DNA from: Prevotellaceae bacterium
Lineage (GTDB): Bacteria > Bacteroidota > Bacteroidia > Bacteroidales > UBA932
DNA length: 64,000 bases
NCBI GenBank assembly: GCA_031280885.1
Contig: JAITGD010000140.1
Coordinates: 1,123-65,122 of the forward strand
Direction: 5' to 3'
In this document: positions 2,757-63,456 of the stretch, one piece after another
Layout of the letters: each line of letters starts with the position of its first letter
How positions within the stretch are numbered: position 1 is the stretch's first letter
The notes under the pieces: model-generated
Database searches by the model: none
Told to the model about the DNA's origin: nothing
The model's input: only the letters and a program-made list of their open reading frames with translations
Made by a program: the position numbers and the translations under genes

Positions 2757-2926
2757 AATTATGAATTATGAATTATGAATTATGAATTAGCTACGCAGGC
2801 TGATTTGATAGTCTTTTTGCACGCAGGCTGGTTCGATAGTCATTTTGCACGCAGATCTTTTTTGAATGTAAGATGCTTTCCTGGTTCCAGACTGCGTAGC
2901 TAATTCATAATTCATAATTCATAATT
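2757..2926. repeat. Nested palindromic intergenic element (copy E1): (AATTATG)n arm, GCTACGCAGGCTG core, interior, CAGACTGCGTAGC core, (CATAATT)n arm
   Basis: I read directly (AATTATG)x4-AATTAGCTACGCAGGCTG ... CCAGACTGCGTAGCTAATT-(CATAATT)x3. The interior holds a direct repeat of ACGCAGGCTGrTTyGATAGTC. It lies in the divergent promoter region between the GH127 gene and giant gene 1. Confidence 0.9.
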
Positions 2927-2989
2927 AAAAATTTGTATTACTTTCGCGGCTTAGAATAATAGCGACTTAGTAACATAATAACAAAAATC

Positions 2990-5900
2990 ATGAGAAAATT
3001 CTCTTTCGTCGGTATTCGCATCGCTATTGCGGTGCTTTTTACAGCAGGATTCATCTCTGCACAAGCGCAACCCTTTGTTGCCGTTGACGACAACGCTACT
3101 ACAGGTCCCTTGCGGAAGTTACGTATCAATGTTCTGCTCAACGACACTATACCATGTTCGAACCCCACTCTGGGGATAGTCCAACCCGTGCCGGCTGCCA
3201 CCTTAGGCACTATCGAAGTCAAATCGGGCGGATACATTGAGTTTACGCCCAGGCTGGCCGCACGAAACAGTACGGTGCAAATCAACTATTCGGTAAGTTG
3301 CTCCGGCAAGTCGGTAAAGGCCAAACTCACGATACGGGTATCGGAATACAATTATCCGGTAAACGTTGTCCCTGTGGACATAGTTTGTTACGACACGGTG
3401 AAGACGGTAACTTTCTCTCCCGATCTGAAATACATTTCGGGTAACGACGGCGTCGATCTGAAGAAGGCTTCTACCGATTTGCCTCTCGACGGTTTTTCGC
3501 TGCCTTTGGTGGGCGACATCAACGGAGACGGCAAGCCCGAAATCATAGCTCTGGGACTGGGAACTTGGGGAAGTTTCACCGATGGCACCGGTCTGGAAGG
3601 CCGCGCCTGGTATGTCCATATCTTCGACGGTCAGACGGGCGTAAGGCTTTGGTCGGTCAATTTCGGCCCCGACAACTCGGGACATGTTCCGCTGACGTCG
3701 CAAATAAGCTATCTGGGTCATGCGGGCATTATCCAGAATAGCAACGATAACAGCGACCAGTTTCAGCTGCGTTACGACCCGCGACATAATTCGCCCGGCC
3801 ACTTGGCTATCGCCGATTTGGACAACGACGGAAAAGCCGAAATCGTGGTGGTGGAAACAGGAAGTATGGGACGTATCTACGCTCTGACGCCGAGGCTGGG
3901 AGCCAAACGCGAAATTATAGGTTTCAGCAAGATGTGGGAAGGGAACGACAACGGAGCGGCATATAGTTACAAAGATCCGCTGGCCAGAGGTGAAAGCGTC
4001 AGCGCAAGCAATTTGAAGCATTTCGGAGCCGGTATTCCTTACATTGCCGACATCAACGGCGACGGTAAACCCGAAGTGATTGTTTATAACAAGATATTCG
4101 ACGGACTTACGGGCAATAAGGTCTGCGTGCTGGAAACACTGGATCACTTCAGTTTCACCACGAACAGCAACGATAACAAAACACGTTTCAACTCTTACGC
4201 CTTCGTCGGTCGCCGCGTCGGTCTTTCGTGGGACGAGGACGGTATTCCCTGTATGGCTATCGCCGATATTAATGCCGACGGAATCCTCGACATCATCGCA
4301 GGAAGCAAGGTTTATATAATGAAGGATTCGGGCGGCAAACCCGCTCTCGACCGCATCATCGCAGGCCCATCGGAAGTCAAGATGCAAAAAGGAAAAGCGA
4401 CGGCCGAAACAACAACGCAGGTAAACGACGGTTTTACGGCGGTGGCAGACATCGACGGAGACGGATTGCTTGACGTCGTTGTGATTGCGCCGGCTAAGAA
4501 CAATACTTACGAAGACATGGAGAATCTGATTTATGTGTGGACGCCGATGTCCTCCTCGCCGACGACGCCGAAAGCAGCCATGTATCTCTACACACGGTCG
4601 GGGTTGGGCAGCATATCGTATCCTTTTATCGGGGATATCAACGGAAGAAAGGACGATTACACAGGCAAAAAACGTTTACCCGAAATATGTCTCAATGTCG
4701 GGGTGCTGCAAACCAACCATGCCAACAGTTCAAAGATAGCGCGACATCCGCTTTCGACCGGACTGACGCTCGACGGTAACGGATTTCTCAATAATGCGGG
4801 TTTCAATCAGGCCTCTTCCGCCTCCGGGCGTGGACATGTGATTGCTTTTACTTTTCATGCAAACGAAAACGACCCCGTCCAAAGCAATCGAACTCCTCTG
4901 CATCAAAGGCTGAAACTTTCGTGGGCTATGGAACATCTCGACATGTCGAGCCAAACGGGTATCACCATGTTCGACTTCGATAACGACGGGGTCAAAGAAT
5001 TGGTTTATCGCGACGAGCTTTCTCTGCGGGTTATTTCTCCCGCCGGAGGAAAGCTGGATTATGTTTCCAACAGCTACGTCAATTCGCCTCCTTCTGCTGA
5101 TATTGTGCGCTTCAGTCAGCCCGGCGTGCGTTCATATACGGGATCCGAAGCTCCTGTAATTGCCGACGTAAATATGGACGGCAGCGCAGATATTGTTACA
5201 ATGGCTGTGGATCCGAGTTTGGATCCGACGAATACATCTCGATTGACCTGGTCGCGCAGTTTCGTATATGTTTTCGAGCATGCTTCGGGTACTCCCAAGT
5301 GGGCGCCTTGCCCGCCGGTATGGAATCAAACGATTTACTATCCGCTTTATATCAACGAGGATTTGACCGTGCCGGCCCGTCCGCAATCCATGTTGAAGGA
5401 GTATATCGATCCGCATACCAAAGAAAAAATCATGCCCTATAACGGACATTGGATTCAGCAACCAATTGTCAAAGACCGCGTCGATTACAGCCCCGTAGTT
5501 CGTAAGCCCGACGCGGTAATCACCGACATGCAGGTGGCTGTGCAAAATCCGCAGAACATAGCAAAGATTACTCTCACTATTCTGAATAAAGGCGCTGCGA
5601 GTATTTCTTCGTCCACGCCGATAGCTTTCTACAACGGCGGAACGAGAGGAGCAAGCACGCAGGTAGGCGCCGGAGCGACGCCTCTATACGTGCATCCTGT
5701 GGGGGTGGACATTTTCCCGGGCGAAGTTCAGACATTGACATATACGCTTACGGGCATCAATTTTAACAACCGTTTGATTTGGGCGCGTATCATGGACGCC
5801 TTCGGAGCTTTTCCTGCAAATGGTTACGACGATTGCGATCCGAAGAGTAATCTCATGGGCGGAGCCGACTGTCCTACGTTTAAATATACGGTCAAGGCGG

Positions 5901-8900
5901 CTCGAAAGCTCTTCTGCGGCGCGGGCGATTCCATTCGTCTGGTTGCACGGGCTGCGGCTGCGCAAACCGCTCCCGTTTTCGCTTGGTATCTCAACGGAGT
6001 GGCAATAAACGGAGCCGTCGATTCGGTATTTTATGCCAAATCGGCAGGCGTTTACCGATGTTATGTAATCGACGATATTTGTCGCGGATATTCTTCGGAA
6101 GAAACCATCTCTTGGTTTTCGCCTTCGGCCTACGACGACCGCACTTCTACGATGATGAACATACCTGCCAAAATCGACGTGCTGGCCAACGACAACTTGT
6201 CTCCATGCCGGCCCACGCTTTCCATAGTAACTAATCCTATGAACGGCGCCGCCGTGCCGACGGCTACGAACGACGGCATTGTTTATACGCCGCACAACAA
6301 TTTCATCGGGCATGATACGCTGGTATATGGCTTCACCGTCGGCAACTCGACGGTAAGCGCCAAGGTGTATATCACGGTAAGCAATCTTCCCGACAATATG
6401 GGCGATGCGAAATGCTACACCAACCCGCCGACAAGCGGACTGTGGACTATAGGCCGCGCGTTCAAAAGCAAGGAGAACGACAAATTCCTGTCGAACAATA
6501 TCTCGCCCGTCGCAGGGGATATCGACGGCGACAAGATTCCTGAAATCTTCGTTGCAAAATACGCGGGAAATAACCGCTGGAAAGATATATATGTGTTTTC
6601 GGGCGCTAACAGAAGCAATCCGAGGGTTATCACAACCGTCGAGGGCGACGTCAACTCCTTCGGTATGGCCTTGGCGAAACTGCCTAACGGCGTTCCTATC
6701 ATCGTAATGATCAAAGGATGTACGACACAAGGTTCTCTACAAACTAACGACGGACGTATCTACGCATACAATGCTCTTACAGGTCAGCAGTTGTGGATTT
6801 CGTCGGCAAGGATTTCGGGCTTTACCGCAAATCTGAATAACAATAACTATTCGCTTCAATTCGTTGATTTCGATGGAGACGGAACTCTGGAACTTGTCGC
6901 AGGAAAAGATATTTTCGCTGCCGAATCGGGCGTAAGGCTACTGACCAGCCCGGGTAACGGAGGCTTTGCCTCGGCCTCGAAGAACGTGTGGGCGCCCTGG
7001 GTTGCCGACATCGACGGAGACGGAAAACCCGAATATATCGCAGGAACGGAAATCTATAAAGTACATATCGACAGACAAAATTCCGGAAACTCGTCCATCT
7101 CTCTGCTGAAAAGCATCCCCGCACAGAGTTTCGGAGGAGTGAATATCGCGGACGGAATGACGCAGACGGCGGATTTCAACGGCGACGGTCAAGCCGATAT
7201 TCTTGTAGCCTGTCCTGTATCAGCCAAGAATATAGCCTTTTTTGTCTGGGATTATTCAACGGGAACGGTGTATGGTTCGGTATATCTTGCCAACGCCACA
7301 AGCGCCGGAAATATGAGTATGCCCGCAGTCGGTAACATCGACGAAAACAAGAATCCCGAAGTTCTGACCGTAGTCGATAACCGAATCAAAGGATGGAGCT
7401 ACAAGCAGGGACAAGCAAACGCTTTTTCGCAAACGGAAGATTACGATTTCCCGATAAACGATCCCTCGGGCGAAACAGGCCTTATTTTGTTCGATTTCAA
7501 TCAAGATGGAAAGAACGAGCTGGTGTATCGCGGCGAAGAGTTTCTGTATATCCTGCAAGCCGATACTCTCGGCAGAGGAACAAGAAGATTCGAGGTTAAG
7601 GATTCCATTGAATGTAAAGCCGGAACGGGCGTCGAACATCCGATAGTAATAGACGCCGACAGTGAAGGAACGGCGGCTATAGTTACCCTCGGAGGAACGG
7701 GAGGAACAGGGGCTAACGGTTTCGAGGGCTGGCTGTATATCTTCAAGTCGCAGGACGACTCGCCTTGGGCTCCGGCACGGAAAGTGTGGAATCAATATCA
7801 GTATAATGTTTTGAATATAAACGAGAATTTGAGTGTGCCGCCTGCGCGCGTCGGCCCTGCAACGATATTCCCCGGAAAGGACGGCACGCTTGGCACCGCC
7901 AGCGATCTGCAACCTTTCAATAATTTCATGCAGCAGCAAACTCTGCTGGACGCCAACGGAAATCCGATCTGGCCTACGCCAGACGTCGAACTTGACGGCG
8001 CTCCTTCGTTTACTTACGACGCAACGGGCGATTCTCTCCTCGTGGTTGTGCCGATTACGAATACCGGCGACGCTCTGTTTCAGCCGCCATCGTACATATC
8101 GGTGTACAAAGACAGCGTAATGGCAACCAATTTTATTGCTTCCAACACTCTCGCAACGGCGGTGCGAGTGAAGGCAAAGTCGAGTATGACACTGACGGCG
8201 CATAACTTTTCGAGCTATTTGCCGGCCACGAGTATAACCGTGCGTATCAACGACAGAGGCGAAGCACGATACGTGCAGCCGGAATGTGATACGACAAATA
8301 ACAATATGATTCGCTTGCTGATATTGAGCTTGCCTTTAGCCAATAACGATACCGTATCGACGGGAACCTGCGCTACCTCGGCTCCGCTAATCGTAGACGT
8401 GCTTGCTAACGACCACTATAACTGTCAGCTTGCGAATTTGACCGTGAATATCATATCCGCCCCGAAGCAGGGTTCGGCTTTCTTCGATAATTTCGACAGG
8501 ATAGTTTATACCTTTACCAACAGCGGATACGTGGGAACGGATACCGTAACTTATCAAATCGAATGTGGCGGGAATATCAGTATTGCGCATCTGTTAGTCA
8601 AGCTCGAACGCGACAGCGACGCCTTTGCCGACGATCTGTGGTACTTCGGAAACGCGGCCTCAGGAAGCGGTTCACCGGGGATTGTCTTCAAAAAGAACTC
8701 TGCGGGAAAATATGTACCTGAGGATGCTTCGGGGATTTCAAAGGTGAACACTTACGAAAACTCGCTGGTTATTTCCTCGCCTTACTGCGACGGACAGTTA
8801 ATCTTTTACTCGCATCACGATCAGCTGTTCAACAGTCTGCACGAGCCGATGCAAAACGGCAGTATCCCCGGAAATTCATCTTGTGCCGACGGTTTGGCGG

Positions 8901-10654
8901 TCTGCTACATGGGCGATAATAAATATCTGATGCTTTCGGTAACGGGCGCTCACAACGACCCGACCAGAGGCCTGAACGCATACCTTATCGATATGAACGC
9001 CGACAACGGAAAGGGCGCAATAATAGCGCCGTCGTTTACCATCGAACCCGACGACGCTGCGATGTCGGAAAGTATAGAACTGATTCCGCGCGCCGGCACC
9101 GCTACGGAATACTGGCTGATTTACCGTTTCGGAGGCGAGCTGCGATGCCGCTTAGTCGATGTGCTGAATACCGCCGCGCCCGTAGCCGCTTCATACACCA
9201 CGATGGCTATAACGAACAATCTTACACATAAATTTGTAGCCTCGCCGAGCAACGACCATTTAGCTTTGGTTTATCCGAATACCGGCGAACTCGATGTGAT
9301 AGATTTCGACAATGTTAGCGGACAACTTTCCAACCGCCGAATCGTCGGAGGGCTGAACAGAACTTACAGCGTGGCATTTTCGCCGAGCGGCAAATATCTG
9401 TATGCTTCCGAATACGAAGCCTCGCCCACCGTCCGTCAATACGACGTCAGCCAGCCCGTTCCGGCTTTGATCGGAACTCCGATTACATATTGGAATCAAG
9501 CCGCCGATCCCCGCAAGGGAGGAGGTCTGAAGCTCGGCCCCGACGGGAAAATCTATGTAGTGCAGGCTTTGTCGGATTATGTCGGAGTGATTTCCGACCC
9601 CGATTCTATTTCCGATCCGAACACTCGCTACGATATTCACGGCTTCAAGCTCGACGTCCCCGGAGGCATGTATCTGGCTTTCTCTACCGGACTTTCGCGT
9701 CCCGACGTCATTGCCTGCAGCCACAATCTGGCTCCCGTAGCCCGTCCCGATTCCGACACTATCTGCGGAGGCGGAGCTTTAGACGTGCTGCTCAACGATT
9801 ACGACCCCGACGGTAATAACGTGTATCTGACCGGAGCGCGCTTCAAAAATGAAATTGATACCTTGTATGCACGATTGATTGTGAATCCCGCGCACGGTTC
9901 GATTTCCGTAACGCCAAAGTCGAACGGACTGATGCCCTCGAACCATCTTTTCGAGATAGAATACGAAATCAAAGACGACGGATTCCCAGCCTCGATATGC
10001 GCCTCAGGAATAGCGCATATCACTATACGCCAACCAGTATCCTATCCCGACGTCCGACTGCATTTATGCCCCTCGCCCGACCGCTCGATCTTCCTAAGCG
10101 GATACCTCGATACTCTGTATCTGAAACGTGTAAAATGGAACGAAATGCACAGAGGAACAGTGAGCTTTGTGCCCGGAACCGACGCTTCCACCGGAGAATT
10201 GAGAACCGGAGCTTTCTCGCTGGGGACGCATATATACCGATACGACGCCGTCAGCGAGTGCAGCACAGGTTCGGGAAAGGTTTATATCAAAGTGTTATCG
10301 CGTAATTCCATAGCTTTGCATCCCGACACTGTGGTGGTATGCCATACGATTCCCTCGTCGGCATATATGCAATTAAATCAGATACTCGGCCTGGAAATCG
10401 ATGGAACATGGAGCTACAATGCCGACCTGAATCCATACGTTACCGTATATGCCGCGCCGTCGAACTTCGTCGGAGCGCATTTCTTCGACGCTCAAAAAGC
10501 TTGGGCCGACGGCAAAGGAACTCCGGGTAGATACAAAAGCGACCCTCTGGCACGAAGATACGAGTTCACCTACACACCGGGGCAAGGAGGCTGCCTGAGC
10601 GATAACTCGCCACGCAAAATGGTGCTGATAGTAACAAACAAACTGATGCCCTGA
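2990..10654 (+). CDS. Giant secreted surface protein 1 (2,554 aa). It contains cadherin-like domains, two FG-GAP/VCBS propellers, CARDB-like domains, another beta-propeller region and a conserved C-terminal module.
   Basis: This is one uninterrupted ORF. The signal peptide is MRKFSFVGIRIAIAVLFTAGFISAQA. There are 15 FG-GAP-type Ca-binding loops (GDINGDGKPEII, ADLDNDGKAEIV, ADINGDGKPEVI, ADIDGDGLLDVV, FDFDNDGVKELV and others) in two clusters. Cadherin-like 'V.A.DD...T......I.VL.ND' domains occur four times. The N-terminal ~1,100 aa and the C-terminal ~200 aa are paralogous to the ORF at 11798-25657. Confidence 0.9.
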   Translation: MRKFSFVGIRIAIAVLFTAGFISAQAQPFVAVDDNATTGPLRKLRINVLLNDTIPCSNPTLGIVQPVPAATLGTIEVKSGGYIEFTPRLAARNSTVQINYSVSCSGKSVKAKLTIRVSEYNYPVNVVPVDIVCYDTVKTVTFSPDLKYISGNDGVDLKKASTDLPLDGFSLPLVGDINGDGKPEIIALGLGTWGSFTDGTGLEGRAWYVHIFDGQTGVRLWSVNFGPDNSGHVPLTSQISYLGHAGIIQNSNDNSDQFQLRYDPRHNSPGHLAIADLDNDGKAEIVVVETGSMGRIYALTPRLGAKREIIGFSKMWEGNDNGAAYSYKDPLARGESVSASNLKHFGAGIPYIADINGDGKPEVIVYNKIFDGLTGNKVCVLETLDHFSFTTNSNDNKTRFNSYAFVGRRVGLSWDEDGIPCMAIADINADGILDIIAGSKVYIMKDSGGKPALDRIIAGPSEVKMQKGKATAETTTQVNDGFTAVADIDGDGLLDVVVIAPAKNNTYEDMENLIYVWTPMSSSPTTPKAAMYLYTRSGLGSISYPFIGDINGRKDDYTGKKRLPEICLNVGVLQTNHANSSKIARHPLSTGLTLDGNGFLNNAGFNQASSASGRGHVIAFTFHANENDPVQSNRTPLHQRLKLSWAMEHLDMSSQTGITMFDFDNDGVKELVYRDELSLRVISPAGGKLDYVSNSYVNSPPSADIVRFSQPGVRSYTGSEAPVIADVNMDGSADIVTMAVDPSLDPTNTSRLTWSRSFVYVFEHASGTPKWAPCPPVWNQTIYYPLYINEDLTVPARPQSMLKEYIDPHTKEKIMPYNGHWIQQPIVKDRVDYSPVVRKPDAVITDMQVAVQNPQNIAKITLTILNKGAASISSSTPIAFYNGGTRGASTQVGAGATPLYVHPVGVDIFPGEVQTLTYTLTGINFNNRLIWARIMDAFGAFPANGYDDCDPKSNLMGGADCPTFKYTVKAARKLFCGAGDSIRLVARAAAAQTAPVFAWYLNGVAINGAVDSVFYAKSAGVYRCYVIDDICRGYSSEETISWFSPSAYDDRTSTMMNIPAKIDVLANDNLSPCRPTLSIVTNPMNGAAVPTATNDGIVYTPHNNFIGHDTLVYGFTVGNSTVSAKVYITVSNLPDNMGDAKCYTNPPTSGLWTIGRAFKSKENDKFLSNNISPVAGDIDGDKIPEIFVAKYAGNNRWKDIYVFSGANRSNPRVITTVEGDVNSFGMALAKLPNGVPIIVMIKGCTTQGSLQTNDGRIYAYNALTGQQLWISSARISGFTANLNNNNYSLQFVDFDGDGTLELVAGKDIFAAESGVRLLTSPGNGGFASASKNVWAPWVADIDGDGKPEYIAGTEIYKVHIDRQNSGNSSISLLKSIPAQSFGGVNIADGMTQTADFNGDGQADILVACPVSAKNIAFFVWDYSTGTVYGSVYLANATSAGNMSMPAVGNIDENKNPEVLTVVDNRIKGWSYKQGQANAFSQTEDYDFPINDPSGETGLILFDFNQDGKNELVYRGEEFLYILQADTLGRGTRRFEVKDSIECKAGTGVEHPIVIDADSEGTAAIVTLGGTGGTGANGFEGWLYIFKSQDDSPWAPARKVWNQYQYNVLNINENLSVPPARVGPATIFPGKDGTLGTASDLQPFNNFMQQQTLLDANGNPIWPTPDVELDGAPSFTYDATGDSLLVVVPITNTGDALFQPPSYISVYKDSVMATNFIASNTLATAVRVKAKSSMTLTAHNFSSYLPATSITVRINDRGEARYVQPECDTTNNNMIRLLILSLPLANNDTVSTGTCATSAPLIVDVLANDHYNCQLANLTVNIISAPKQGSAFFDNFDRIVYTFTNSGYVGTDTVTYQIECGGNISIAHLLVKLERDSDAFADDLWYFGNAASGSGSPGIVFKKNSAGKYVPEDASGISKVNTYENSLVISSPYCDGQLIFYSHHDQLFNSLHEPMQNGSIPGNSSCADGLAVCYMGDNKYLMLSVTGAHNDPTRGLNAYLIDMNADNGKGAIIAPSFTIEPDDAAMSESIELIPRAGTATEYWLIYRFGGELRCRLVDVLNTAAPVAASYTTMAITNNLTHKFVASPSNDHLALVYPNTGELDVIDFDNVSGQLSNRRIVGGLNRTYSVAFSPSGKYLYASEYEASPTVRQYDVSQPVPALIGTPITYWNQAADPRKGGGLKLGPDGKIYVVQALSDYVGVISDPDSISDPNTRYDIHGFKLDVPGGMYLAFSTGLSRPDVIACSHNLAPVARPDSDTICGGGALDVLLNDYDPDGNNVYLTGARFKNEIDTLYARLIVNPAHGSISVTPKSNGLMPSNHLFEIEYEIKDDGFPASICASGIAHITIRQPVSYPDVRLHLCPSPDRSIFLSGYLDTLYLKRVKWNEMHRGTVSFVPGTDASTGELRTGAFSLGTHIYRYDAVSECSTGSGKVYIKVLSRNSIALHPDTVVVCHTIPSSAYMQLNQILGLEIDGTWSYNADLNPYVTVYAAPSNFVGAHFFDAQKAWADGKGTPGRYKSDPLARRYEFTYTPGQGGCLSDNSPRKMVLIVTNKLMP

Positions 10655-10659
10655 TCGCG

Positions 10660-10835
10660 AGAACCAAGAGCCAAGATTTCAAGAGCCAAGACGCTACGCA
10701 GGAAGGCAGAAGGCAGAAGGCAGAAGGCAGAAAGCAGAAAGCAGAAAGCAACACGCCTTCTGCTTTCTGCTTTCTGCTTTCTGCCAGACTGCGTAGCGTC
10801 TTGATTCTTGGTTCTTGCAATCCTGAATCTTCAAG
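10660..10835. repeat. Nested palindromic element (copy E2) with GCAGAAR heptamer arms
   Basis: The sequence reads GAACCAAGAGCCAAGATTTCAAGAGCCAAGACGCTACGCAGG-(AAGGCAG/AAAGCAG)x7-loop-(CTTCTGC/TTTCTGC)x4-CCAGACTGCGTAGCGTCTTGATTCTTGGTTC. It begins 6 nt after the stop of giant gene 1. Confidence 0.9.
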
Positions 10836-10940: not shown

Positions 10941-11555
10941 ATGCTCGCAGACATTTTAAGGGCAAAATCCGATAAAGAACTTGTTACCATGCTGGTATCG
11001 GGCAGCGTTTCGGCTTTTGAAGAGCTGTATGTCAGACACAAAAGCCGGCTGATGTACTTTTGTAAACGCTTTCTCAAGAACGATGATCTGGCAGAAGATC
11101 TTATACAGGACGTCTTTATAAAGATTTGGGACACAAAGGAGAATCTCGATCCCGATTTATCTTTCGCAAAATATCTGCATATCTCGGTTCAAAATCGTAT
11201 ATTAAACATGTTCAGGCAGTTTGATGTACATTCGCGTTTTGCCGATTCTGTTATCAAAGCCGCTGAGCAGGCGAACAATCAAACTGAATGTCAGGTAATA
11301 GACAATGATTATGCTGCTTTGTTAGATATGGCTATCGAAACTTTGTCGCCAAGACAGCGAGAGGTATTTTATCTCAGCCGGACGATGGGGCTGACTTATA
11401 GAGAGATTGCAAAATCGATGCAAATATCTGTGCCAATGGTGCAACAGCACGCATCCATAGCTCTCGAAAAAATACGTAAACACTTGAAACTGCATACCGA
11501 TATAGATTTCAAAACAATAATCGCCTGCTTGATTGCAGGTGAATTTTTTCACTGA
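10941..11555 (+). CDS. RNA polymerase sigma-70 family factor (ECF-type, Bacteroides-expansion-like), with no adjacent anti-sigma gene
   Basis: Region 2 reads EDLIQDVFIKIW. The region 4 helix-turn-helix reads LSPRQREVFYLSRTMGLTYREIAKSMQISVPMVQQHASIALEKIRKHL. The 204-aa length is typical of the family. No FecR-like ORF lies on either side. Confidence 0.85.
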   Translation: MLADILRAKSDKELVTMLVSGSVSAFEELYVRHKSRLMYFCKRFLKNDDLAEDLIQDVFIKIWDTKENLDPDLSFAKYLHISVQNRILNMFRQFDVHSRFADSVIKAAEQANNQTECQVIDNDYAALLDMAIETLSPRQREVFYLSRTMGLTYREIAKSMQISVPMVQQHASIALEKIRKHLKLHTDIDFKTIIACLIAGEFFH

Positions 11556-55198: not shown

Positions 55199-56614
55199 AT
55201 GAAAACTTCTAAATTATTAACAGTAGCCCTTTGTGGCTTACTTGCACTTGCATCGTGCAAAAAAGACGAGGAGCCGTCTAATCAATTGACGCTGACTCCC
55301 GAAAGTTTGAACTTCACCAGCGCCGAATCGACGCAGGCAATCAGCGTAAACACTGATCGTGAATGGACTGCAACGCCAAACAGTACTTGGGTTTCGCTTG
55401 ATACTACCTCCGGTTCAGGCTCCGGAACGATTAACGTTACTGTTAAGCCTAATATTTCCGTTGAGCCACGAACTACAAGTGTTACAGTGAAATCCGTAGG
55501 ATCAAACCTAACGCGCTCGGTAAGCATCACTCAAGAAGGTTCGCAGCAGGCGATTAGTGTAGAAAACAAACGTCGTTCAATCGGGTCATATCAGCAGGCC
55601 ATAGAAGTGCATCTATCTGCAAATGTGCCATATCTGGTAAACGTCATAGAGGCTGGCTGGGTGCAGCCCGAAGCCGGAGCGGGCGCGCAAACTACGCCTA
55701 TGCAGTTCTTCAATATAAATGCGAATAACACCAGCTCGTCGCGCACAGCTCGCGTAGTATTCAGTATGGCAGGCAATTCGGACATAAGCGACACTCTCTA
55801 CCTGACCCAGCTAACGGAGGTGATGACCGGCAGGCTTAAAGATAGTCTGGCTCTGGTAACTATTTTTGAATTGACCGGTGGCAATAATTGGACTGATAAC
55901 GCGGGCTGGCTGGAAGCTCCTCTTGAAGAGTGGAGTGGCGTGTCTTTGGAGAATAATCGCGTCATAACACTTGACTTACAGGGTAAATCGCTTAGCGGAA
56001 CTATCCCGCCGGAAATAGGGCATCTTGATGAATTGACGGCGCTTTATCTTGCTGGTAATTCCTTGACAGGAAACATTCCTGATAATCTGATGTATCTGTC
56101 GAAGCTCGTGATTATGTACCTTAATGACAATCAGCTAAGCGGCTCTATTCCTTCTAATTTGTTCGCTATGGATAGTCTGCAAATCGTGCATTTAGAAGGT
56201 AATCAACTCACCGGAGCAATTCCTGACCATTATGCTACTCCGTCGAGGCTTCAGGAGATATATCTGTCGTACAATAATCTAACAGGTTCTATTCCTGCGG
56301 AATTAGGTGATCTTCAAGAGCTAAGCACCATCGAAATCATTGGCAATTCGCTATCAGGAAGTATCCCGTCGGAACTTGGCAATGCTCCAAAACTCTTCCT
56401 CCTCGACCTGTCAGAAAACAATCTCACAGGCAGTATTCCCGGAGCGCTGGGCTTAGCGCCGGAGCTGACAATATTCGTTCTTGCCGGCAATCAATTGTCG
56501 GGCGCAGTTCCGCAGTCCGTCCTCGACAAGGTTAATGAGGCAGACGTATATACTTTTATAATTTGTCCACAGCAGGGAGCAGGTTTTAATAATTACACTT
56601 GTCCGGCAGAGTGA
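55199..56614 (+). CDS. Lipoprotein with two BACON-like domains and about 7 plant-type (24-residue) leucine-rich repeats
   Basis: The lipobox is LLALASCKKDE. BACON segments include LNFTSAESTQAISVNTDREWTA..STWVSL and RTARVVFSM. The LRRs read L..L.L..N.L(T/S)G.IP..L, for example LYLAGNSLTGNIPDNL, LDLSENNLTGSIPGAL and VLAGNQLSGAVPQSV. Confidence 0.8.
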   Translation: MKTSKLLTVALCGLLALASCKKDEEPSNQLTLTPESLNFTSAESTQAISVNTDREWTATPNSTWVSLDTTSGSGSGTINVTVKPNISVEPRTTSVTVKSVGSNLTRSVSITQEGSQQAISVENKRRSIGSYQQAIEVHLSANVPYLVNVIEAGWVQPEAGAGAQTTPMQFFNINANNTSSSRTARVVFSMAGNSDISDTLYLTQLTEVMTGRLKDSLALVTIFELTGGNNWTDNAGWLEAPLEEWSGVSLENNRVITLDLQGKSLSGTIPPEIGHLDELTALYLAGNSLTGNIPDNLMYLSKLVIMYLNDNQLSGSIPSNLFAMDSLQIVHLEGNQLTGAIPDHYATPSRLQEIYLSYNNLTGSIPAELGDLQELSTIEIIGNSLSGSIPSELGNAPKLFLLDLSENNLTGSIPGALGLAPELTIFVLAGNQLSGAVPQSVLDKVNEADVYTFIICPQQGAGFNNYTCPAE

Positions 56615-56630
56615 TAGCTGCTTTCTTGAT

Positions 56631-56792
56631 TGAGAATCAGTAAACAAGAATAAAGAACCAAGACACTACGCGAGCTGGTTTGATGAAAAGACCTGCATCA
56701 TTTACAATGCAAAACGAGAGTCAATCCAGCCTGCGTAGCGTCCTGATTCTTGGTTCTTGAAATCCTGAATCTCTCTTAATTCATAATTCTTA
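56631..56792. repeat. Nested palindromic element (copy E11)
   Basis: The sequence reads AAGAACCAAGACACTACGCGAGCTGGTTTGATG ... CCAGCCTGCGTAGCGTCCTGATTCTTGGTTCTTGAAATCCTGAATC, followed by CTCTTAATTCATAATTC. Confidence 0.85.
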
Positions 56793-56868
56793 CTGTCTGT
56801 TTTAATCATTGAAACAGAGGTTTAATAAAAAATTGCAAAAATTTTTGCTAAGGAATAATAATTATATC

Positions 56869-56876
56869 TACCTTTG
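56869..56876 (+). promoter_or_regulatory. -7 box TACCTTTG
   Basis: This is a perfect match 68 nt upstream of the ATG at 56944. Confidence 0.45.
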
Positions 56877-56943
56877 TAGCGAATATCAGCATAGGATAAC
56901 AGATGTTCTCTATGTGCATTATCAGACAATAACGTGATTAATA

Positions 56944-58116
56944 ATGATTATAAAAGAAGCTACTCGACTTGGAAGTGTTCAGGAGTACTACTTCTCGGGT
57001 AAAAACCGCCAAATAGCGGCGATGAATCTTAATGGAGAAAAGGTTATAAATCTGGGAATAGGCAGCCCCGACCTTAAACCCTCCGACGAAACTATAGATG
57101 TGCTGTACGCTATCGCACAGAAGGATGATACTCATGGTTATCAGCCATACAGAGGCGATTCTGCTCTTCGACAGGAGATAGCTACATGGTATGCCGATAC
57201 TTTCAAAGTGGCCTGCCTTCCTGACGAAGAGGTACTTCCCTTGGCGGGATCTAAGGAAGGAATCATGCACATCAGCATGGCCTTTATTAATCAGGGAGAT
57301 GAGGTCTTGGTACCCGACCCTGGTTATCCGACCTATTCGTCGGCAACGCTTCTTGCCGGAGGCAAAGTGCGTAATTATAAGTTAAAAGAAAGCCTTGCTT
57401 GGCAAATTGATTTCGAGGAATTGGAAGCGCAGGATCTATCGAAAGTAAAGATCATGTGGACCTGCTTTCCCAATATGCCCACAGGCGCCAGAGCTACAGA
57501 CGAAACCTATCTAAGGTTGATTGCGCTGGCAAAGAAGAATAGCTTTCTGATAGTGAACGACAATCCATATAGCTTGGTGCTTAACACTGAATACAAGAGT
57601 ATTCTGTATTATCCCGGCGGCTTCGATGTGGCTGTGGAACTAAATTCTTTAAGCAAGTCGCACAATATGGCCGGTTGGCGTGTTGGCTGGATGTTAGGGC
57701 GTAAAGCCTATATCGATGCTGTGGTAAAATTCAAAAGCAACATGGATTCGGGAATCTTCCTCGGCATCCAAAGGGCTGCTGTTGAGGCTTTGCAGAACGC
57801 TCCCGAATGGCACCTTAAACGTAATGAGACTTATTCGCTACGTCGCAAGCTCGCCGAGCAGTTAGCTAAGAGGTTGAATTTGAGCTTCGACGAATCGCAA
57901 GTAGGTTTGTTTCTCTGGTGCAAGATACCCGACAGCGTAGAATCGGGCGAGGCCGTGAGCGACATCCTTTTAGAGAAAGCGCGAGTATTCATTACGCCCG
58001 GTTTCGTCTTCGGAAGCACGGGCGAGAGATATGTACGTATCTCATTATGTACGCATCACGACAATTACATGGAAGCTATACGTCGCTTAGACAAAGCAAA
58101 AATAGAATTTAAATGA
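56944..58116 (+). CDS. Class I/II PLP-dependent aminotransferase
   Basis: Motifs NLGIGSPDL, GYQPY.G and NDNPY are present, and the PLP-lysine motif is SLSKSHNMAGWRVGW. Confidence 0.8.
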   Translation: MIIKEATRLGSVQEYYFSGKNRQIAAMNLNGEKVINLGIGSPDLKPSDETIDVLYAIAQKDDTHGYQPYRGDSALRQEIATWYADTFKVACLPDEEVLPLAGSKEGIMHISMAFINQGDEVLVPDPGYPTYSSATLLAGGKVRNYKLKESLAWQIDFEELEAQDLSKVKIMWTCFPNMPTGARATDETYLRLIALAKKNSFLIVNDNPYSLVLNTEYKSILYYPGGFDVAVELNSLSKSHNMAGWRVGWMLGRKAYIDAVVKFKSNMDSGIFLGIQRAAVEALQNAPEWHLKRNETYSLRRKLAEQLAKRLNLSFDESQVGLFLWCKIPDSVESGEAVSDILLEKARVFITPGFVFGSTGERYVRISLCTHHDNYMEAIRRLDKAKIEFK

Positions 58117-61100
58117 GATTTAAAAGTTCACATAAACTATCCTTTGTTATATTTCTGGGACTGACGTCGGCAGCGCTTAGGGCTGAACCACTGTGGCTTC
58201 GCTATCCGGCTATCTCGCCCGACGGAAAGCAGATTGCCTTCACCTATCGCGGCGATATATATAAGGTATCAGCCGCAGGCGGCGAAGCAAAGCAAATCAC
58301 TGTTCACGAGGGATATGAGTATATGCCTGTGTGGTCGCCCGACGGAAAACACATAGCCTTTGCAAGCGACCGTAACGGAAACTTCGACCTTTATACCGTA
58401 CCGTCGGAAGGCGGACAGTGGCAACGACTTACGACCTGGTCGGGAAGCGAGTCGCCATATAGTTTCACGCCCGACGGGAAGCGAGTGGTGTATAGCGCTA
58501 AAATACAGGCGCCGGCCATGAGCGCAGCCTTCCCTTCGGGGGTGATGAGCGAACTTTACAGCGTAAGCACGGACGGAAAGGGTCGTCCCGAACAATTTCT
58601 GGCTACACCTGCCGAAAATGTATCTTTCACATCCGACGGAAATCTGATGGTATATCAGGATAGAAAAGGACAGGAAGACCGTTTTCGCAAACATCATAAA
58701 TCCTCGGTAACGCGCAATATCATGCTCTATAACATTAAAACAGGGAAGCATACAGAGCTGGTTGGCGATGCCGGGGAAGACACAAATCCGGTGTTTACTG
58801 CCGACGGAACGCAGATATATTTCTTGAGCGAAAGATCAGGCATTTATAATGTGTACTCCTTTGACCTTCAACAAGCGGATAAGATACGTCAGCATACTGA
58901 TTTCAAGACCCATCCTGTACGTTTCCTGAGTTTGGCGCAGAACGGAACAATGTGTTTTTCGTTCGACGGGGAACTTTACACCCAAGAGCAAGGAGGTAAA
59001 GCAAAGAAAGTCAAAGTGATGATAAACGATTCCGATAAATCCAACGGATTGCTGCATCTTAATAACAAGAACAACTGGGGCAAGGCGGTCTCGTCAGATG
59101 GACGACAAGTGGCTGTAACAATGCGCGGTGAAATCTTCGTTACCTCTACCGAATACAAATACAGCAAACGTATAACTTCGACCTCCGCTCAAGAGGAGTG
59201 GCCATCCTTCTCACCGGATGGGAAAACTCTGGCTTATGCTTCGGAACGCGAAGGAGTTTGGAATATATACACAGCCAAACTCTTGCGTAGCGACGAACAG
59301 TATTTCTTTAATGCGACATCCATAAAGGAAGAGCCTCTCTTTGAACGATCATCAACAGAAAGGATGATCCCGAAATTCTCGCCCGACGGTACCGAACTTG
59401 CCTATATCGAAGACCGTAACAAGCTCATGGTCTATAATTTCGCTACACGTAAAACACGCCGGATTACCGACGGAAGCTATAATCCCGACTCGTCGGGAAA
59501 CATCGATTACGAATGGTCGCCCGACGGACAATGGTTCGCTCTGGTTTATGTGCCGAACAAACACATGCCATATTCCGACATAGGCTTAGTAAGCTCGAAG
59601 GGAGGCAACATAACCAACCTCACCGGCAGCGGCTATACCGATGCTAATCCTCGCTGGGTACTCGATGGCAACGCAATTTTGTTTCGCTCCGAGCGTTACG
59701 GAATGAGAAATCATGCTTCCTGGGGATCGCTCAACGATGCTATGCTGATCTTCATGAACCGGAAATCATACGACCGCTTTATGCTTAGTGATGATGACTT
59801 CAAACTACTTAAAGACAGCGAGAAAGATCAGAACAAAGCTAAGGATGAAACTAAATCGGAACAAGAAGATAAAGATAAAAAAGACAAGAATACGAAGGAC
59901 CAGAAAGCAGGAGGAAATTCTCGCAGCAAACCTTCCGACAGCATAGTTATGGAATTGGAGAACATCCTTACTCGTACCATACGGCTAACCCCCTCTTCCT
60001 CGCAAATGGGCGACGCTCTGCTCAATAAGGACGGCAGCAAACTCTACTACCTTGCATCCTTTGAAAAGGGATACGACCTGTGGTCGATAAATTGCCGGAC
60101 AAAAGAAACTAAACTCGAAGTAAAAGAGGCCGGTAGCGCTCCTCTCTACCTCGATAAGGAGGGAAAGAACCTCTTTCTCTTGGGACGAGCAATGCAAAAA
60201 ATCACATTATCAGACAATAAGAAAACAACAATAAACTGCCGCGCAGAGATGACCGTGAATCTTGCCGAAGAACGTCAATATATGTATGACCATGTTTGCC
60301 GTCAGGAAGAAAAGAGATTCTACACAGTCGATATGCACGGAGTCGATTGGCCGCTGATGAAGAAAGCTTACGCGCGCTTCTTGCCTTATATTGATAATAA
60401 TTACGACTTTGCAGAGCTTCTTAGCGAACTTCTGGGCGAACTCAACGTGTCGCACACAGGCGGACGCTATAAGCCGACTCCGGAAGATCCCGATGCTACT
60501 GCTCAATTAGGGCTGTTTTTCAACTGGGACTATAAGGGCGATGGCCTGCTGGTAGATGAAATACTGGAACTTGGCCCCTTCGACAAGGCCGCTTCCGACA
60601 TGAGGCGAGGCTGCATTGTGGAAGCAATCGACGGCGAAAAAGTGCTGGCCGACAGAGACTACTTCGCCCTGCTCAATAGAAAAGCCGGCCAAAATACCCT
60701 GATCAGTTTCCGTAATAAAGAAACAGGAAAAGTGAGCGAAGAAGTGGTCAAACCCATCAGTATATCGCAACAGAACTCCTTGTTATACAAGCGCTGGGTC
60801 AAGCAGAGAGAGAAGGATGTGGACAAGCTTTCGGGTGGACAGTTAGGCTATGTGCACATCGAAAGCATGGGAGACCCAAGCTTCCGCACCATCTATTCCG
60901 ACATACTTGGACGCTTTAACTCAAAGAAAGGCATAGTGATAGATACCCGCTTCAACGGCGGAGGGCGCTTGCACGAGGACATAGAAGTGCTATTCAGCGG
61001 ACAAAAGTATTTTACGCAGGTGATACGCGGACAAGAAGCCTGCGATATGCCAAGTCGCCGATGGAACAAACCATCGATAATGATAACCGGCGAAGCTAAC

Positions 61101-61385
61101 TACTCTAACGCTCACGGAACTCCATGGGTATATCGACATACGGGAACAGGCAAAATCGTCGGTATGCCGGTGCCGGGAACCATGACCAGCGTATCGTGGG
61201 AAACACTTCAGGACAATACCTTAGTCTTTGGAATTCCCATAGTTGGATACCGCCTGCCGGATGGCTCATACTTGGAAAACGCTCAGCTCGAACCGGATAT
61301 AAAGATCAGCAATAAACCCGAATCGCTGATCGGAGGAAAAGACGAACAGCTTGAACGCGCAGTAAAAGAACTCCTTAAATTATGA
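58113..61385 (+). CDS. Tricorn-protease-like S41 peptidase with N-terminal PD40/TolB-type beta-propellers
   Basis: PD40 repeats recur (SPDGKQIAF, SPDGKHIAFASDRNGNFDLY, SPDGKTLAYASEREGVWNIY, SPDGTELAY, SPDGQWFAL). The C-terminal S41-like region reads GYVHIESM..., DTRFNGGG. The ATGA overlaps the upstream gene. Confidence 0.8.
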   Translation: MRFKSSHKLSFVIFLGLTSAALRAEPLWLRYPAISPDGKQIAFTYRGDIYKVSAAGGEAKQITVHEGYEYMPVWSPDGKHIAFASDRNGNFDLYTVPSEGGQWQRLTTWSGSESPYSFTPDGKRVVYSAKIQAPAMSAAFPSGVMSELYSVSTDGKGRPEQFLATPAENVSFTSDGNLMVYQDRKGQEDRFRKHHKSSVTRNIMLYNIKTGKHTELVGDAGEDTNPVFTADGTQIYFLSERSGIYNVYSFDLQQADKIRQHTDFKTHPVRFLSLAQNGTMCFSFDGELYTQEQGGKAKKVKVMINDSDKSNGLLHLNNKNNWGKAVSSDGRQVAVTMRGEIFVTSTEYKYSKRITSTSAQEEWPSFSPDGKTLAYASEREGVWNIYTAKLLRSDEQYFFNATSIKEEPLFERSSTERMIPKFSPDGTELAYIEDRNKLMVYNFATRKTRRITDGSYNPDSSGNIDYEWSPDGQWFALVYVPNKHMPYSDIGLVSSKGGNITNLTGSGYTDANPRWVLDGNAILFRSERYGMRNHASWGSLNDAMLIFMNRKSYDRFMLSDDDFKLLKDSEKDQNKAKDETKSEQEDKDKKDKNTKDQKAGGNSRSKPSDSIVMELENILTRTIRLTPSSSQMGDALLNKDGSKLYYLASFEKGYDLWSINCRTKETKLEVKEAGSAPLYLDKEGKNLFLLGRAMQKITLSDNKKTTINCRAEMTVNLAEERQYMYDHVCRQEEKRFYTVDMHGVDWPLMKKAYARFLPYIDNNYDFAELLSELLGELNVSHTGGRYKPTPEDPDATAQLGLFFNWDYKGDGLLVDEILELGPFDKAASDMRRGCIVEAIDGEKVLADRDYFALLNRKAGQNTLISFRNKETGKVSEEVVKPISISQQNSLLYKRWVKQREKDVDKLSGGQLGYVHIESMGDPSFRTIYSDILGRFNSKKGIVIDTRFNGGGRLHEDIEVLFSGQKYFTQVIRGQEACDMPSRRWNKPSIMITGEANYSNAHGTPWVYRHTGTGKIVGMPVPGTMTSVSWETLQDNTLVFGIPIVGYRLPDGSYLENAQLEPDIKISNKPESLIGGKDEQLERAVKELLKL

Positions 61386-61462
61386 ATCGTGAATCGTGAA
61401 TTATAAAAAAGCATAATTGAAAAGCTGATGAATAAGAACGAAACATATATTATAAGCAAACA

Positions 61463-61960
61463 GCGTCGGAGTAGCAACGTGTTATTTGATTTAGATTGTC
61501 ATAGGATCAGAATGTTTTTTAGTTTTTGCTTCTCCGGCGCTTTATCATCAAAAGGAAATAAACCCTTGAATTATAATTATATTAAATTAATGACAAGATG
61601 GCGTCAGGACTTCAAGACTGGTGTAAACTTAGATGACATCTCACCCTCTGAACTATGCTTTTCGTCTTATCCTGACGCTTTTCTGCAAACGATAGATCCT
61701 CAGGGAAATCCACAAACGATAACCCTTAAAAATACCCCGCGTCAGAGCCCTCGTTTAGTCAAAGAAATTCTTTATTTTGTCATAGTTTTGCAAGCTTGTT
61801 TGACTGGCTCTGACGCTTTTCTAAAACCATTCAAACTGCTCTTGAAGCAGAATATAATACGAATTAAAAACACATGGCATCAGGCTTAGTAGTCGTAAGA
61901 TCTTATCACTCATAACAAAAACTGTTTTTAAATTAAACATTGCTAACCTGATGCCTTTTT
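61463..61960 (+). repeat. Four tandem hairpin units of about 138 bp in a 597-bp non-coding gap
   Basis: The stems are GCGTCGGAG/CTCCGGCGC (61463-61540), GCGTCAGGA/TCCTGACGC (61601-61678), GCGTCAGAGCC/GGCTCTGACGC (61739-61816) and GGCATCAGG/CCTGATGCC (61876-61955). Each encloses about 60 nt, and units 2-4 are followed by a T-run (TTTTCT, TTTTCT, TTTTT). The spacings are 138, 138 and 137 nt. Confidence 0.7.
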
Positions 61961-61982
61961 AGTTTGATACCAATTAGAACAA

Positions 61983-63251
61983 ATGTACAGCATACTTTTA
62001 TTTATAACCTACGGTTTACTGTGGCTTGCCTCGCCATTCAGTAAGAAAATACGCGCCTGGCTGACCATGCGCAACGGCACTATCAAAACCTTAGCAGCTT
62101 CGCTATCAAAAGAAAACCAGCCAATTGTGTGGCTGCACTGCGCTTCGCTGGGCGAGTTTGAACAAGGACGACCTATACTCGAAGCCTTTCTGCAACGACA
62201 TCCGCAGTATAAAGCCCTGATTACCTTATATTCTACTTCGGGATACGAACAAGTTAAGAAATACCATAGCGCCCATTATCTGGCTCTGCTTCCGCTCGAT
62301 ACCTGTTTCAATGCCCGTCGATTCGTAAAAACAGTAAAACCTCAAATGACGCTCTGGATACGCTACGAATTTTGGAGTAACCATCTGAAAGAGCTGAAAC
62401 GCAATGACTATCCTTGTTATCTGATCTCGGCTACCTTCCGTAAAAGGCAAATATTTTTCTACCCATGGGGATGGTTCTTCCGTGCTATACTTCGCTGTTT
62501 CAACCATATCTTCGTGCAGAACGAGGCATCGCAGGAACTACTCGCGAAAATAAACATAGCCTCGACCGTAACCGGCGACACTCGCTTCGACCGTGTTATA
62601 GAAATCGCCGCTCGCAGCAAGGACTATCCCACAGTGGCGCAGTTTGCCGAAGGCGGAAAAACCCTTATCGCAGGAAGCTCATGGCCCAGCGACGAGCGCG
62701 TACTCGCAGAGGTGATGAGGGAATTTCCTGATGTTAAGTTAATTATGGTGCCGCACGAAATCGATGAGGCTCATATCGCCGAAATTGAACAGCGCTTTAC
62801 CTATCGACGTACCATACGCTATACCGAAGCCGAGGGGAAGGACATGAAACAATATGACCTGATGATAATAAATACCATTGGAATGCTCTCGTCCATTTAC
62901 CGTTACGCACAGGTAGCCTACATAGGTTGCGGCTTCGACGATGGGATACACAATATCTCGGAAGCAGCCGTTTACGGCATACCCGTAGTGTTTGCGCCTA
63001 ACTATCATAAATTCGAGGAAGCCAACGACTTGGTAGCCATGAAAGGCGCTCTCGTTATACGCAACGCCGAAGAGCTGATAGCTGTAATTCGCTCGCTTTA
63101 TACTGACGAAAATCGCCGACAGCTTCTTGGCAAAATATGTAAGGACTATATCTTTGCCAACTCCGGCACCTCAGAGAAGAGCCTGAATAAAATCGACGCC
63201 GAAAGCAATTATTCTCATAACGAGCCGAAAGCCGAAAGCCGAAGGCAGTAA
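61983..63251 (+). CDS. waaA: 3-deoxy-D-manno-octulosonic acid (Kdo) transferase
   Basis: It has an N-terminal TM segment and the motifs VWLHCASLGEFEQGRPILEAF, PHE and ISEAAVYGIPVVFAPNYHKFEEA. The last residues (AESRRQ) lie in repeat E12. Confidence 0.85.
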   Translation: MYSILLFITYGLLWLASPFSKKIRAWLTMRNGTIKTLAASLSKENQPIVWLHCASLGEFEQGRPILEAFLQRHPQYKALITLYSTSGYEQVKKYHSAHYLALLPLDTCFNARRFVKTVKPQMTLWIRYEFWSNHLKELKRNDYPCYLISATFRKRQIFFYPWGWFFRAILRCFNHIFVQNEASQELLAKINIASTVTGDTRFDRVIEIAARSKDYPTVAQFAEGGKTLIAGSSWPSDERVLAEVMREFPDVKLIMVPHEIDEAHIAEIEQRFTYRRTIRYTEAEGKDMKQYDLMIINTIGMLSSIYRYAQVAYIGCGFDDGIHNISEAAVYGIPVVFAPNYHKFEEANDLVAMKGALVIRNAEELIAVIRSLYTDENRRQLLGKICKDYIFANSGTSEKSLNKIDAESNYSHNEPKAESRRQ

Positions 63252-63456
63252 GCACGAACGCAGAAAAGCCGAAGGCAGAAGGCACAAAAGCAGAAAGGCG
63301 GAAGGCAGAAAGCACAAAAGCAGAAAGGCAGAAGGCAGAAAGCAAGATGGTATGTTTGCTTTCTGCCTTTCTGCTTTTCTGCCTTCTGCCTTTCTGCTTT
63401 CTGCTTTTCTGCTTTCGTACATTCTTGCTTTTCAGCCTATTGCCTTCTGCTTTCGG
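63221..63456. repeat. Nested palindromic element (copy E12) with GCCGAAR/GCAGAAR heptamer arms
   Basis: The left arm is GCCGAAAGCCGAAAGCCGAAGGCAG...(GCAGAAR-type units, about 16). The right arm is (GCyTTTCT/GCCTTCT)n...GCCTTCTGCTTTCGGC. It contains the stop codons of both convergent flanking genes. Confidence 0.9.

Follow-up and report, generated by a model that had tools for sequence, protein, structure and literature searches.

What are the long palindromes that recur between the genes of an uncultured Bacteroidales bacterium, and how did they come to be dispersed there? The question arises from a stretch of 64,000 nt of chromosomal DNA (Prevotellaceae bacterium, assembly GCA_031280885.1, contig JAITGD010000140.1, positions 1,123 to 65,122), which we call the window and to which all copy counts of the family refer. 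An earlier examination of its letters (hereafter the sequence-only reading) had picked out eight intergenic elements, named E1, E2, E5, E6, E8, E10, E11 and E12, and had described them as one abundant repeat family of a Bacteroidota genome, its modules shuffled from copy to copy. Core statistics, profile matches and nesting show this family to be genuine, and on balance we lean towards regarding it as a lineage-restricted, non-coding family of dispersed mosaic palindromes, selfish or neutral, which resembles the REPIN and BIME elements without being canonical. Dispersed mosaic palindromic repeats are already known; what is unusual here is the mirrored heptad arms, the nesting and a core that is separable from the arms.

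Core, half-elements and nesting

A scan of the window with the core GCTACGCAGGCTGG, allowing up to 2 mismatches, recovered 14 matches against 0.19 expected, a count reached by none of 100 dinucleotide shuffles, and the paired-core pattern GCTACGCAGNCTGG-N60-90-CTGCGTAGC occurs three times where 0.00 matches are expected. A limit of 3 mismatches yields 17 genuine cores, spread over seven intergenic loci (E1, E2, E5, E6, E8, E10 and E11), in addition to three matches inside genes, at 6958, 17326 and 39845, which are due to chance. An nhmmer profile of the half-element described below gave 21 significant matches (E-values 5e-17 to 8e-6), every one intergenic and none in coding DNA. Direct reading found all eight named copies at their reported positions, and when each was folded, a check that the sequence-only reading had proposed, all gave very stable hairpins with minimum free energies (MFE) of -56 to -136 kcal/mol and z scores, computed against dinucleotide shuffles, of -4.7 to -13.5. 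Tandem Repeats Finder (TRF) reported heptad arrays of AATTATG, GCAGAAR, AATTAAG and CAAG-type units, and an inverted-repeat finder located inverted arms in the elements, in agreement with the architecture proposed earlier. The conserved inverted core that was part of that proposal is found in E1, E2, E6, E8, E10 and E11; E12 has no core and E5 a left core only.

The eight elements sum to about 1.6 kb, or 2.5% of the window. The earlier estimate of about 4% is approached (about 3.8%) only when the degenerate relatives and an 8-mer palindrome, both considered below, are counted with them. By a count from the open reading frames (ORFs) and the sequence, there are about 17 spacers longer than 100 nt in the window, eight of which hold family elements and five other repeats.

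An alignment of the 70 nt outside each core revealed a half-element of about 46 nt with the consensus GATTCAGGATTGCAAGARCCAAGAATCARGAC-GCTACGCAGNCTGG, often continued by yTTGAy or (TTTGAT). It is seen in the right half of E2, in both halves of E6 and of E8 and in the right half of E11; these roughly 46 nt are common to E2, E6, E8 and E11, and the half-elements are about 90-95% identical between loci. The left half of E6 and the right half of E11 have about 58 nt in common, including AATTAAGAGAGATTCAGG. Such sharing between loci implies that sequence has been copied from one to another, which is more than local slippage provides. The basic unit of the family is an inverted pair of half-elements around a variable centre, forming a 40-60 bp hairpin on single-stranded DNA or RNA. 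The 14-nt core is without internal dyad symmetry. Conservation is highest at this internal core and decays outward into variable heptads; the termini are not sharp, and direct reading of E2, E5, E6, E8 and E11 found neither target-site duplications nor other flanking direct repeats.

The modules are combined by nesting. The (GCAGAAR)n hairpin, for instance, stands alone in E12, between the cores of E2 and inside E5, while in E8 and E6 one core element lies inside another. In E1 and E8 the centre is made up of tandem duplications for which ACGCAG served as the seed.

Setting every left arm against its reverse-complemented right partner gave 522 matches, 33 G.T, 29 A.C and 87 transversion mismatches, that is, 87 transversions against 62 transitions. 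The excess of transversions stems from arm-specific unit variants, as in the inner arms of E8, where AATTATG faces AATTAAG. Hence each 7-nt array is homogenised within itself and apart from its partner arm, a signature of replication slippage; this points to slippage or unequal exchange acting after the palindrome existed, rather than to a process that keeps the arms complementary. In line with this, period 7 dominates the tandem repeats of the window, with 3.1 arrays per 10 kb versus 0-2 in relatives (TRF). We considered a fold under selection at the RNA level and found it unsupported: G.U pairs are not in excess over A.C (33 versus 29), which argues against selection on the RNA fold of one strand. 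Two further ideas were set aside. A conserved small ORF (MNYELATQA..., in E1 and E8) follows from the shared nucleotides, and the contig L108, introduced below, reads the core in another frame; a tRNA-derived origin, suggested by the T-arm-like GGTTCGAT, found no tRNA-like fold in the elements. All oriented copies have the same polarity on the + strand, for which the chance is about 1 in 16 allowing for subfamilies, too weak to use, and GC skew is uninformative for their orientation.

Gene ends, relatives and the proposed means of spread

The elements overwrite the 3' ends of pyrD, folP and kdtA. Homologues of FolP are 271-298 aa long, whereas the FolP ORF of the window has 323 aa and is conserved up to ...ATQTIAVW; its last 37 codons (- strand, with the stop at 42074) are supplied by E6, from its right arm and core (42074-42185), and the resulting 37-aa tail, RWSQDCKKEPRLQEPRMQESGLQEPRIRTATQAGLII, stands in place of about 6-15 native C-terminal residues of the homologues. 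The stop codon of pyrD (41963-41965) lies inside the AATTAAG array of E6 and that of kdtA (63249-63251) inside E12. Altogether, six of the eight elements begin at a stop codon or within about 20 nt of one.

One site can be compared with a relative. The contig L111 has the gene order PSP1-GldH-M23-FolP-hairpin element-XerD-LolA (identities of 80% for M23, 78% for XerD and 84% for LolA). Its FolP-XerD spacer of 233 nt is a hairpin element (MFE -103, z -9.5) in which AATTAAG-like units stand at the stop of folP, (CACAGAGATC)n forms the central hairpin and the right arms are made of CCTGG heptads. The outer right arm, promoter and xerD are colinear with the end of E8, and the outer right arms are orthologous; the arm is about 80% identical to the half-element of the window up to CAGGAC, after which it reads TGGTT... 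and is without the 11 nt GCTACGCAGGC. The alignment with E8 indicates that the arms at the xerD site pre-date the split of the two lineages, while core and centre differ. The two genes folP and xerD, which adjoin in L111, lie on opposite strands of the window with 7 kb between them; a single inversion from 42.0 to 49.1 kb, with E6 and E8 as its endpoints, would restore the junction found in L111.

The core also occurs in another organism. Among the three loci returned by a gapped core-pair scan, L106 and L107 are chance coding matches and only L108 is real. This 7.2-kb contig of 58.6% GC carries a gene for a TonB-dependent receptor together with dus, mnmG and ybeY, and one of its intergenic regions holds a nested hairpin (z -15.8) with three core copies, including GCTACGCAGGCTGGTTT. 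Perfect 27-nt arms abut the core at the same junction as in the window but are built of unrelated units (GAATTACTCGAA, GAACTCGAA), and the element, at 47% GC, lies far below its host contig.

These three observations, namely the rewritten gene ends, the core-less orthologue in L111 and the core copy in the unrelated L108, suggest mobility. In the scenario that we favour, the family would have spread by a process that works on hairpin DNA without duplicating the target. The agent would most likely be a trans-acting Y1/HUH enzyme of RAYT-like type, encoded elsewhere and keyed to the conserved core; no other guess is as economical, since for Bacteroidetes RAYT-like genes have been reported whose hairpins are atypical and non-GTAG (PMC6006769). 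Recombination or gene conversion between copies may have added to the spread. After arrival, slippage and tandem duplication would lengthen arms and centres, more insertions into the middle of the palindrome would enlarge the elements, and any effect on transcription would be secondary.

Several results weigh against this scenario. The comparison of E8 with L111, the sole orthologous one, indicates long residence at a site and not recent insertion, and no clean pair of an empty and a filled site was found. The fuzzy ends of the elements fit growth in place as well. No transposase of any kind occurs among the ORFs of the window, leaving the enzymatic step purely conjectural. Exact-pattern scans found the family elsewhere only in L108; a protein-database search with the six-frame translation of E6 matched only the FolP of this organism; and BLAST searches of E6 and E8 against plasmids and phages returned generic AATTAAG arrays only. 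The inversion, in turn, rests on one relative, while L104, the contig whose RecA is 93% identical, shows a third arrangement with yet another neighbour for the methyltransferase gene.

The contigs L105 (20 kb), L110 (10 kb) and L122 (21 kb, GCA_031297505.1) gave no half-element matches and contain few long hairpins. A scan of genome contigs with the 17-mer GACGCTACGCAGNCTGG was uninformative, with single chance hits, mostly in high-GC genomes, among the matches listed; such hits often fall in the coding motif MGRYAGW of phosphofructokinase. A metagenome scan with the 23-mer AATCARGACGCTACGCAGNCTGG gave 0 matches, and three scans of viral contigs gave chance coding matches only. A Cyanobacteriota genome (L084, about 150-260) has a single apparently intergenic GACGCTACGCAGGCTGG preceded by AAACCAAGCT; with one copy in 8 kb it is probably due to chance.

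The alternative that fares best, unlikely in our estimate yet deserving real weight, is that the elements are selected in cis, as 3'-end or mRNA-stability structures, as insulators or as sites where a nucleoid-associated or RNA-binding protein binds the core, the heptad arms merely providing the stem. It would account for the frequent start of the elements at stop codons, for hairpins kept although the arm sequences differ completely between copies, for an element that has stayed upstream of xerD ever since the L111 lineage split off, and for the conservation of the core in the unrelated L108. The sequence-only reading had likewise thought the elements strong bidirectional terminators. However, no T-tract follows any copy, and E1 and E10 lie between divergent starts and promoters, which leaves that role unsupported. 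Ordinary hairpin-plus-T terminators do exist in the window (28190-28320 and 40414-40445), and a terminator scan of 40-57 kb flagged that of htpG (40414-40445) and none of E6, E8, E10 and E11. Selection in cis is further opposed by the lack of a bias of G.U over A.C, by the arm-specific homogenisation through which the arms diverge, by the damage that the elements do to gene ends, as in the tail of FolP, by an orthologous site in L111 that lacks the core, and by the solo arms at 32085-32190.

A distinctly doubtful variant on mobility would make the core the mobile part: 14-20 nt, GCTACGCAGGCTGG(TTTGAT), recognised as a portable module by an enzyme that acts in trans, is so far undescribed and is not a GTAG-reading RAYT. 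By inserting symmetrically into existing hairpin arms, the core would cause nested insertions at the centres of palindromes. Both the homologous arms without a core in L111 and the same core in the foreign arms of the GC-richer L108 would thereby be explained, and, if this is true, Bacteroidota would possess a new class of mobile DNA that targets hairpins.

Quite improbable, in our judgement, is a purely local origin, in which slippage and intrastrand template switching make the palindromes from terminator or heptad sequence with no transposition, and the loci resemble one another because the same short seeds grew convergently, or through gene conversion. The fuzzy ends without target duplications speak for it, as do the tandem duplications of many unit sizes seeded on ACGCAG, the high genome-local load of tandem repeats and the persistence of the orthologous element at E8 and in L111 with a changed interior. 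Convergence, however, cannot produce 90-95% identity over half-elements of 46-58 nt at loci that are unlinked, nor does local growth account for the same core and nested layout, with different arms, in the 58.6% GC contig of another organism.

[quoted passage not shown] They are small, intergenic and multicopy with long inverted terminal regions (the inverted half-elements), and MITE-like elements with internal tandem repeats do exist in Bacteroidales (BrickBuilt, PMC4596501). Yet the absence of flanking direct repeats at E2, E5, E6, E8 and E11 and the fuzzy ends weaken the MITE-like option that the sequence-only reading had entertained; conservation peaks internally and fades towards the ends, the opposite of transposase-bound terminal repeats; and the window holds no partner insertion sequence.

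That the palindromes are spurious, or repeats collapsed in assembly or sequencing, is scarcely credible: contigs from short reads do end within elements, as do both ends of two Logan contigs of run SRR14710902, but these match the window at 100% (52087-56750 and 56752-63431) and between them cover the left arm, loop and right core of E11, E12 almost completely and a portion of E10, so that the elements are no artefact of this assembly, related elements occur in other samples (L108 and L111), and the copies differ in ways that collapse would not give.

Relation to described repeat families

Canonical REPs are GC-rich palindromes of 20-40 nt whose hairpin carries at its foot an unpaired 5' tag, GT[AG]G or CGTC (PMC3733652, PMC6006769), and RAYT subclass 2.6 of Bacteroidetes comprises RAYT-like Y1 enzymes with atypical, non-GTAG hairpins (PMC6006769). 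The family of the window resembles REPs, REPINs and BIMEs in being abundant, intergenic and non-coding, in the larger hairpins that arise from inverted pairs, in its mosaic of shorter motifs, in the lack of target duplications, in insertions that extend or sit in genes and in providing substrates for recombination; its core even contains GTAG and CGTC. It differs in the length of its elements (160-240 nt versus 20-40 nt), in stems of 40-60 bp made of AT-rich tandem heptads in place of GC-rich unique sequence, and in a core that is not itself palindromic. The sequence-only reading had inferred kinship with REP/RAYT systems from the GTAG/CTAC of the core. This argument fails, for the two tetranucleotides pair with each other in mid-stem with the polarity 5'-CTAC...GTAG-3', the reverse of the unpaired 5' GTAG foot of double-foot REPs. 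Nor was a RAYT identified among the ORFs of the window. The statement of that reading that the window has no transposase is borne out: none of the ORFs has a transposase, Y1/HUH or mobile-element integrase domain, and the sole recombinase is of XerD type and stands in conserved synteny.

Separate from these elements, canonical double-foot GTAG palindromes are present at 50902-50952 (50925-50952) in the window, as GTAGGGGCGTTGCGCGCAACGCCCCTAC, and at 4626-4654 and 488-504 in L104, as GTAGAGACGTTGCACACAACGTCTCTAC, with compensatory stem changes between the two. They look like a true REP-type family of the clade, distinct from the heptad-arm family. Small GC-rich palindromes, CGTCCCTRCGGGACG, recur in the window (30268-30335), in L104 (918-1040 and 3668), in L111 (42) and in L110 (625-700), and are possibly a CGTC-tagged REP-like family.

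The nearest described analogue in Bacteroidales is BrickBuilt of Porphyromonas gingivalis (PMC4596501), which is likewise strictly intergenic and species-restricted, numbers tens of copies and has a variable-copy internal tandem repeat flanked by conserved modules, with partial forms that miss one flank. BrickBuilt, though, is a single direct array of 23-nt units between a leader and a tail, with small inverted ends, whereas the present family has units of 7 nt (also 8 and 15) in two inverted arrays that form a stem around the pair of 14-nt cores; the two are set apart here by layout and not by sequence comparison. Tandem arrays with 23-nt units are also seen at 50969-51050 in the window, at 1209-1338 in L104 and at 42-132 in L105, their likeness to BrickBuilt being one of period alone.

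Heptanucleotide repeats (short tandemly repeated repetitive sequences, STRR; TAACTGA) are known from Cyanobacteria, Beggiatoaceae and some Bacteroidetes (PMC4679880). Like the arms of the present elements they are intergenic tandem heptamers of variable copy number and patchy phylogenetic distribution, and AATTAAG-type arrays such as that of E6 match cyanobacterial plasmids by BLAST. They are, however, direct arrays that usually stand close upstream of a start codon and have neither a partner array nor a conserved core, while the window family has inverted array pairs and several unrelated heptads.

The BOX, RUP, Correia/NEMIS and ERIC elements, repeats of Gram-positive bacteria and Neisseria, are modular, hairpin-forming and intergenic, measure about 100-250 nt and vary in the number of internal modules (boxB), all of which recalls the family of the window. 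They have defined ends, and Correia and RUP come with target duplications and inverted repeats like those of insertion sequences. We know of none among them that is made of mirrored heptad arrays. In Rfam 15, whose matches were taken from an E-value search of the window, no family reaches its gathering score for the elements; E2, E5, E6 and E12 have sub-threshold likeness to miRNA-precursor models (for example, 46 bits versus a gathering score of 96). The sequence-only reading knew of no described equivalent, and literature searches for the core sequence and for heptad palindromes in Bacteroidales found no relevant description.

The elements one by one and their neighbourhood

The host was placed in its order by RecA, whose best matches are at 95% and 93% (Joint Genome Institute, JGI, metagenomes) and then at about 81% ('Prevotellaceae bacterium' genomes); PorV and GldH are present. 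The housekeeping genes of the window are eno, adk, recA, htpG, pyrD, folP, xerD, porV, gldH, kdtA and lptF/G. ORFs and Pfam matches bear out the gene contexts reported earlier: E5, E6 and E12 lie between convergent genes (the right-hand ORF of E12 being putative), E2, E8 and E11 between tandem genes, and E1 and E10 between divergent genes.

E1 (2757-2933; MFE -73.1, z -10.1) consists of an (AATTATG)4.7 arm, a core at 2790-2803, an inverted core at 2887-2900 and a (CATAATT)3 arm, with an interior of 28-nt tandem duplications seeded on ACGCAG (2793-2854), and separates a divergent GH127 gene (start 2709, - strand) from the gene of a 2554-aa protein (start 2990). E2 (10660-10835; MFE -100.4, z -11.5) begins 6 nt past the stop codon of the latter and is followed by an ECF sigma factor gene; it has CAAG-heptad arms and cores at 10693-10706 and 10784-10797, with the nested (GCAGAAR)n hairpin at 10702-10784. 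The sigma factor gene (10941-11555) separates two genes for giant FG-GAP/Ig-like proteins with FG-GAP, Big_9 and cadherin-like repeats, of 2554 aa (2990-10654) and 4619 aa (11798-25657).

E5 (34809-34972; MFE -89.9, z -9.2) is the entire spacer between the convergent stop codons of a glutaminase-A-like gene (34809) and porV (34976), and comprises a left CAAG arm, a degenerate core at 34842-34855, the (GCAGAAR)n hairpin and a core-less right arm. E6 (41946-42185; MFE -114.3, z -9.3) combines an (AATTAAG)5 array, the consensus half-element, cores at 42016-42029, 42052-42065 and 42087-42100 and a long right arm of CTTG heptads. E8 (49005-49238; MFE -86.0, z -7.9) runs from the methyltransferase gene's stop codon to about 12 nt short of the promoter box of xerD; its outer CAAG arms, with a core at 49042-49055 and a truncated inverted core at 49204-49212, enclose inner (AATTATG)3 and (TTAATTC)n arms with cores at 49088-49101 and 49158-49171.

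E10 (51936-52150; MFE -73.8, z -4.7), between a divergent DUF4469 gene (- strand, start 51833) and a gene for a 490-aa protein (start 52205), has CAGG/CAAG arms, a degenerate left core at 51966-51979 and right cores at 52068-52081 and 52114-52127. E11 (56631-56792; MFE -56.5, z -7.7) has a degenerate left arm with a core at 56665-56678 and a near-consensus right core at 56726-56739; its right half-element, which includes the stretch of about 58 nt in common with the left half of E6, is the best profile match of all (E-value 5.4e-17). E12 (63221-63456; MFE -135.6, z -13.5) is a core-less hairpin of GCAGAAR-like units of 7, 8 and 15 nt only, a module also found nested within E2 and E5.

Among the degenerate relatives proposed earlier, those at 32085-32190 (+ strand) are indeed family arms: two direct left arms, each ending in ...CCAAGAC where the core normally begins (profile E-values 1e-6 and 3e-6). 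They form no hairpin (z +0.9), and core and right arm are absent. Fainter traces are a degenerate left arm (...AAGCCAAGAC) at 50860-50892 (+ strand; profile E-value 4.7, weak), which abuts a GTAG-type palindrome and not the family core, and a remnant of 2.3 CAGGAAC heptads at 25660-25690 (+ strand; E-value 0.1, weak) after the stop codon of the 4619-aa gene, with an ordinary T-tailed terminator hairpin 3' of the remnant. Most of 50860-51050 and the 8-mer palindrome at 45800-46173 had also been listed as relatives and prove to be different repeat types.

This 8-mer palindrome consists of two inverted arrays of about 15 eight-base units (TTTTGGAC, TCCAACAG) set 100 nt apart (z -14), without the family core; its arms, TTTTGGAC versus TGTTGGAC, show the same single-base difference in every unit. 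It immediately precedes the promoter that serves a tRNA-Pro(CGG) gene (46203-46277), which Rfam matches at 46203-46276 with 62 bits against a gathering score of 29. The corresponding site in L104 (1-1790) is 1.7 kb of gene-free DNA upstream of a Zn-peptidase gene, dense with unrelated palindromes and a 23-nt array. At 29960-30161 in the window, a 42-nt unit is present in about four tandem copies within a gene-free stretch of 760 nt, overlapped by a 165-aa ORF without a Pfam match; the unit has the motif TTTTTTTGGGA in common with the solo arms at 32085 and 32127.

Dispersed palindromic repeats have been well studied in Proteobacteria and barely described in Bacteroidales, a dominant gut order. 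The present family shows that such repeats can fill much of the intergenic DNA, about half of the longer spacers of the window holding one of its elements, and that housekeeping proteins, FolP for one, can have their C-termini rewritten by them. The elements may also mark rearrangement breakpoints. Short-read assemblies break at each of the copies, which may help to explain the fragmented metagenome-derived genomes of the clade. The separable core and arms, finally, provide a handle for finding the enzyme that moves these elements, if one exists.

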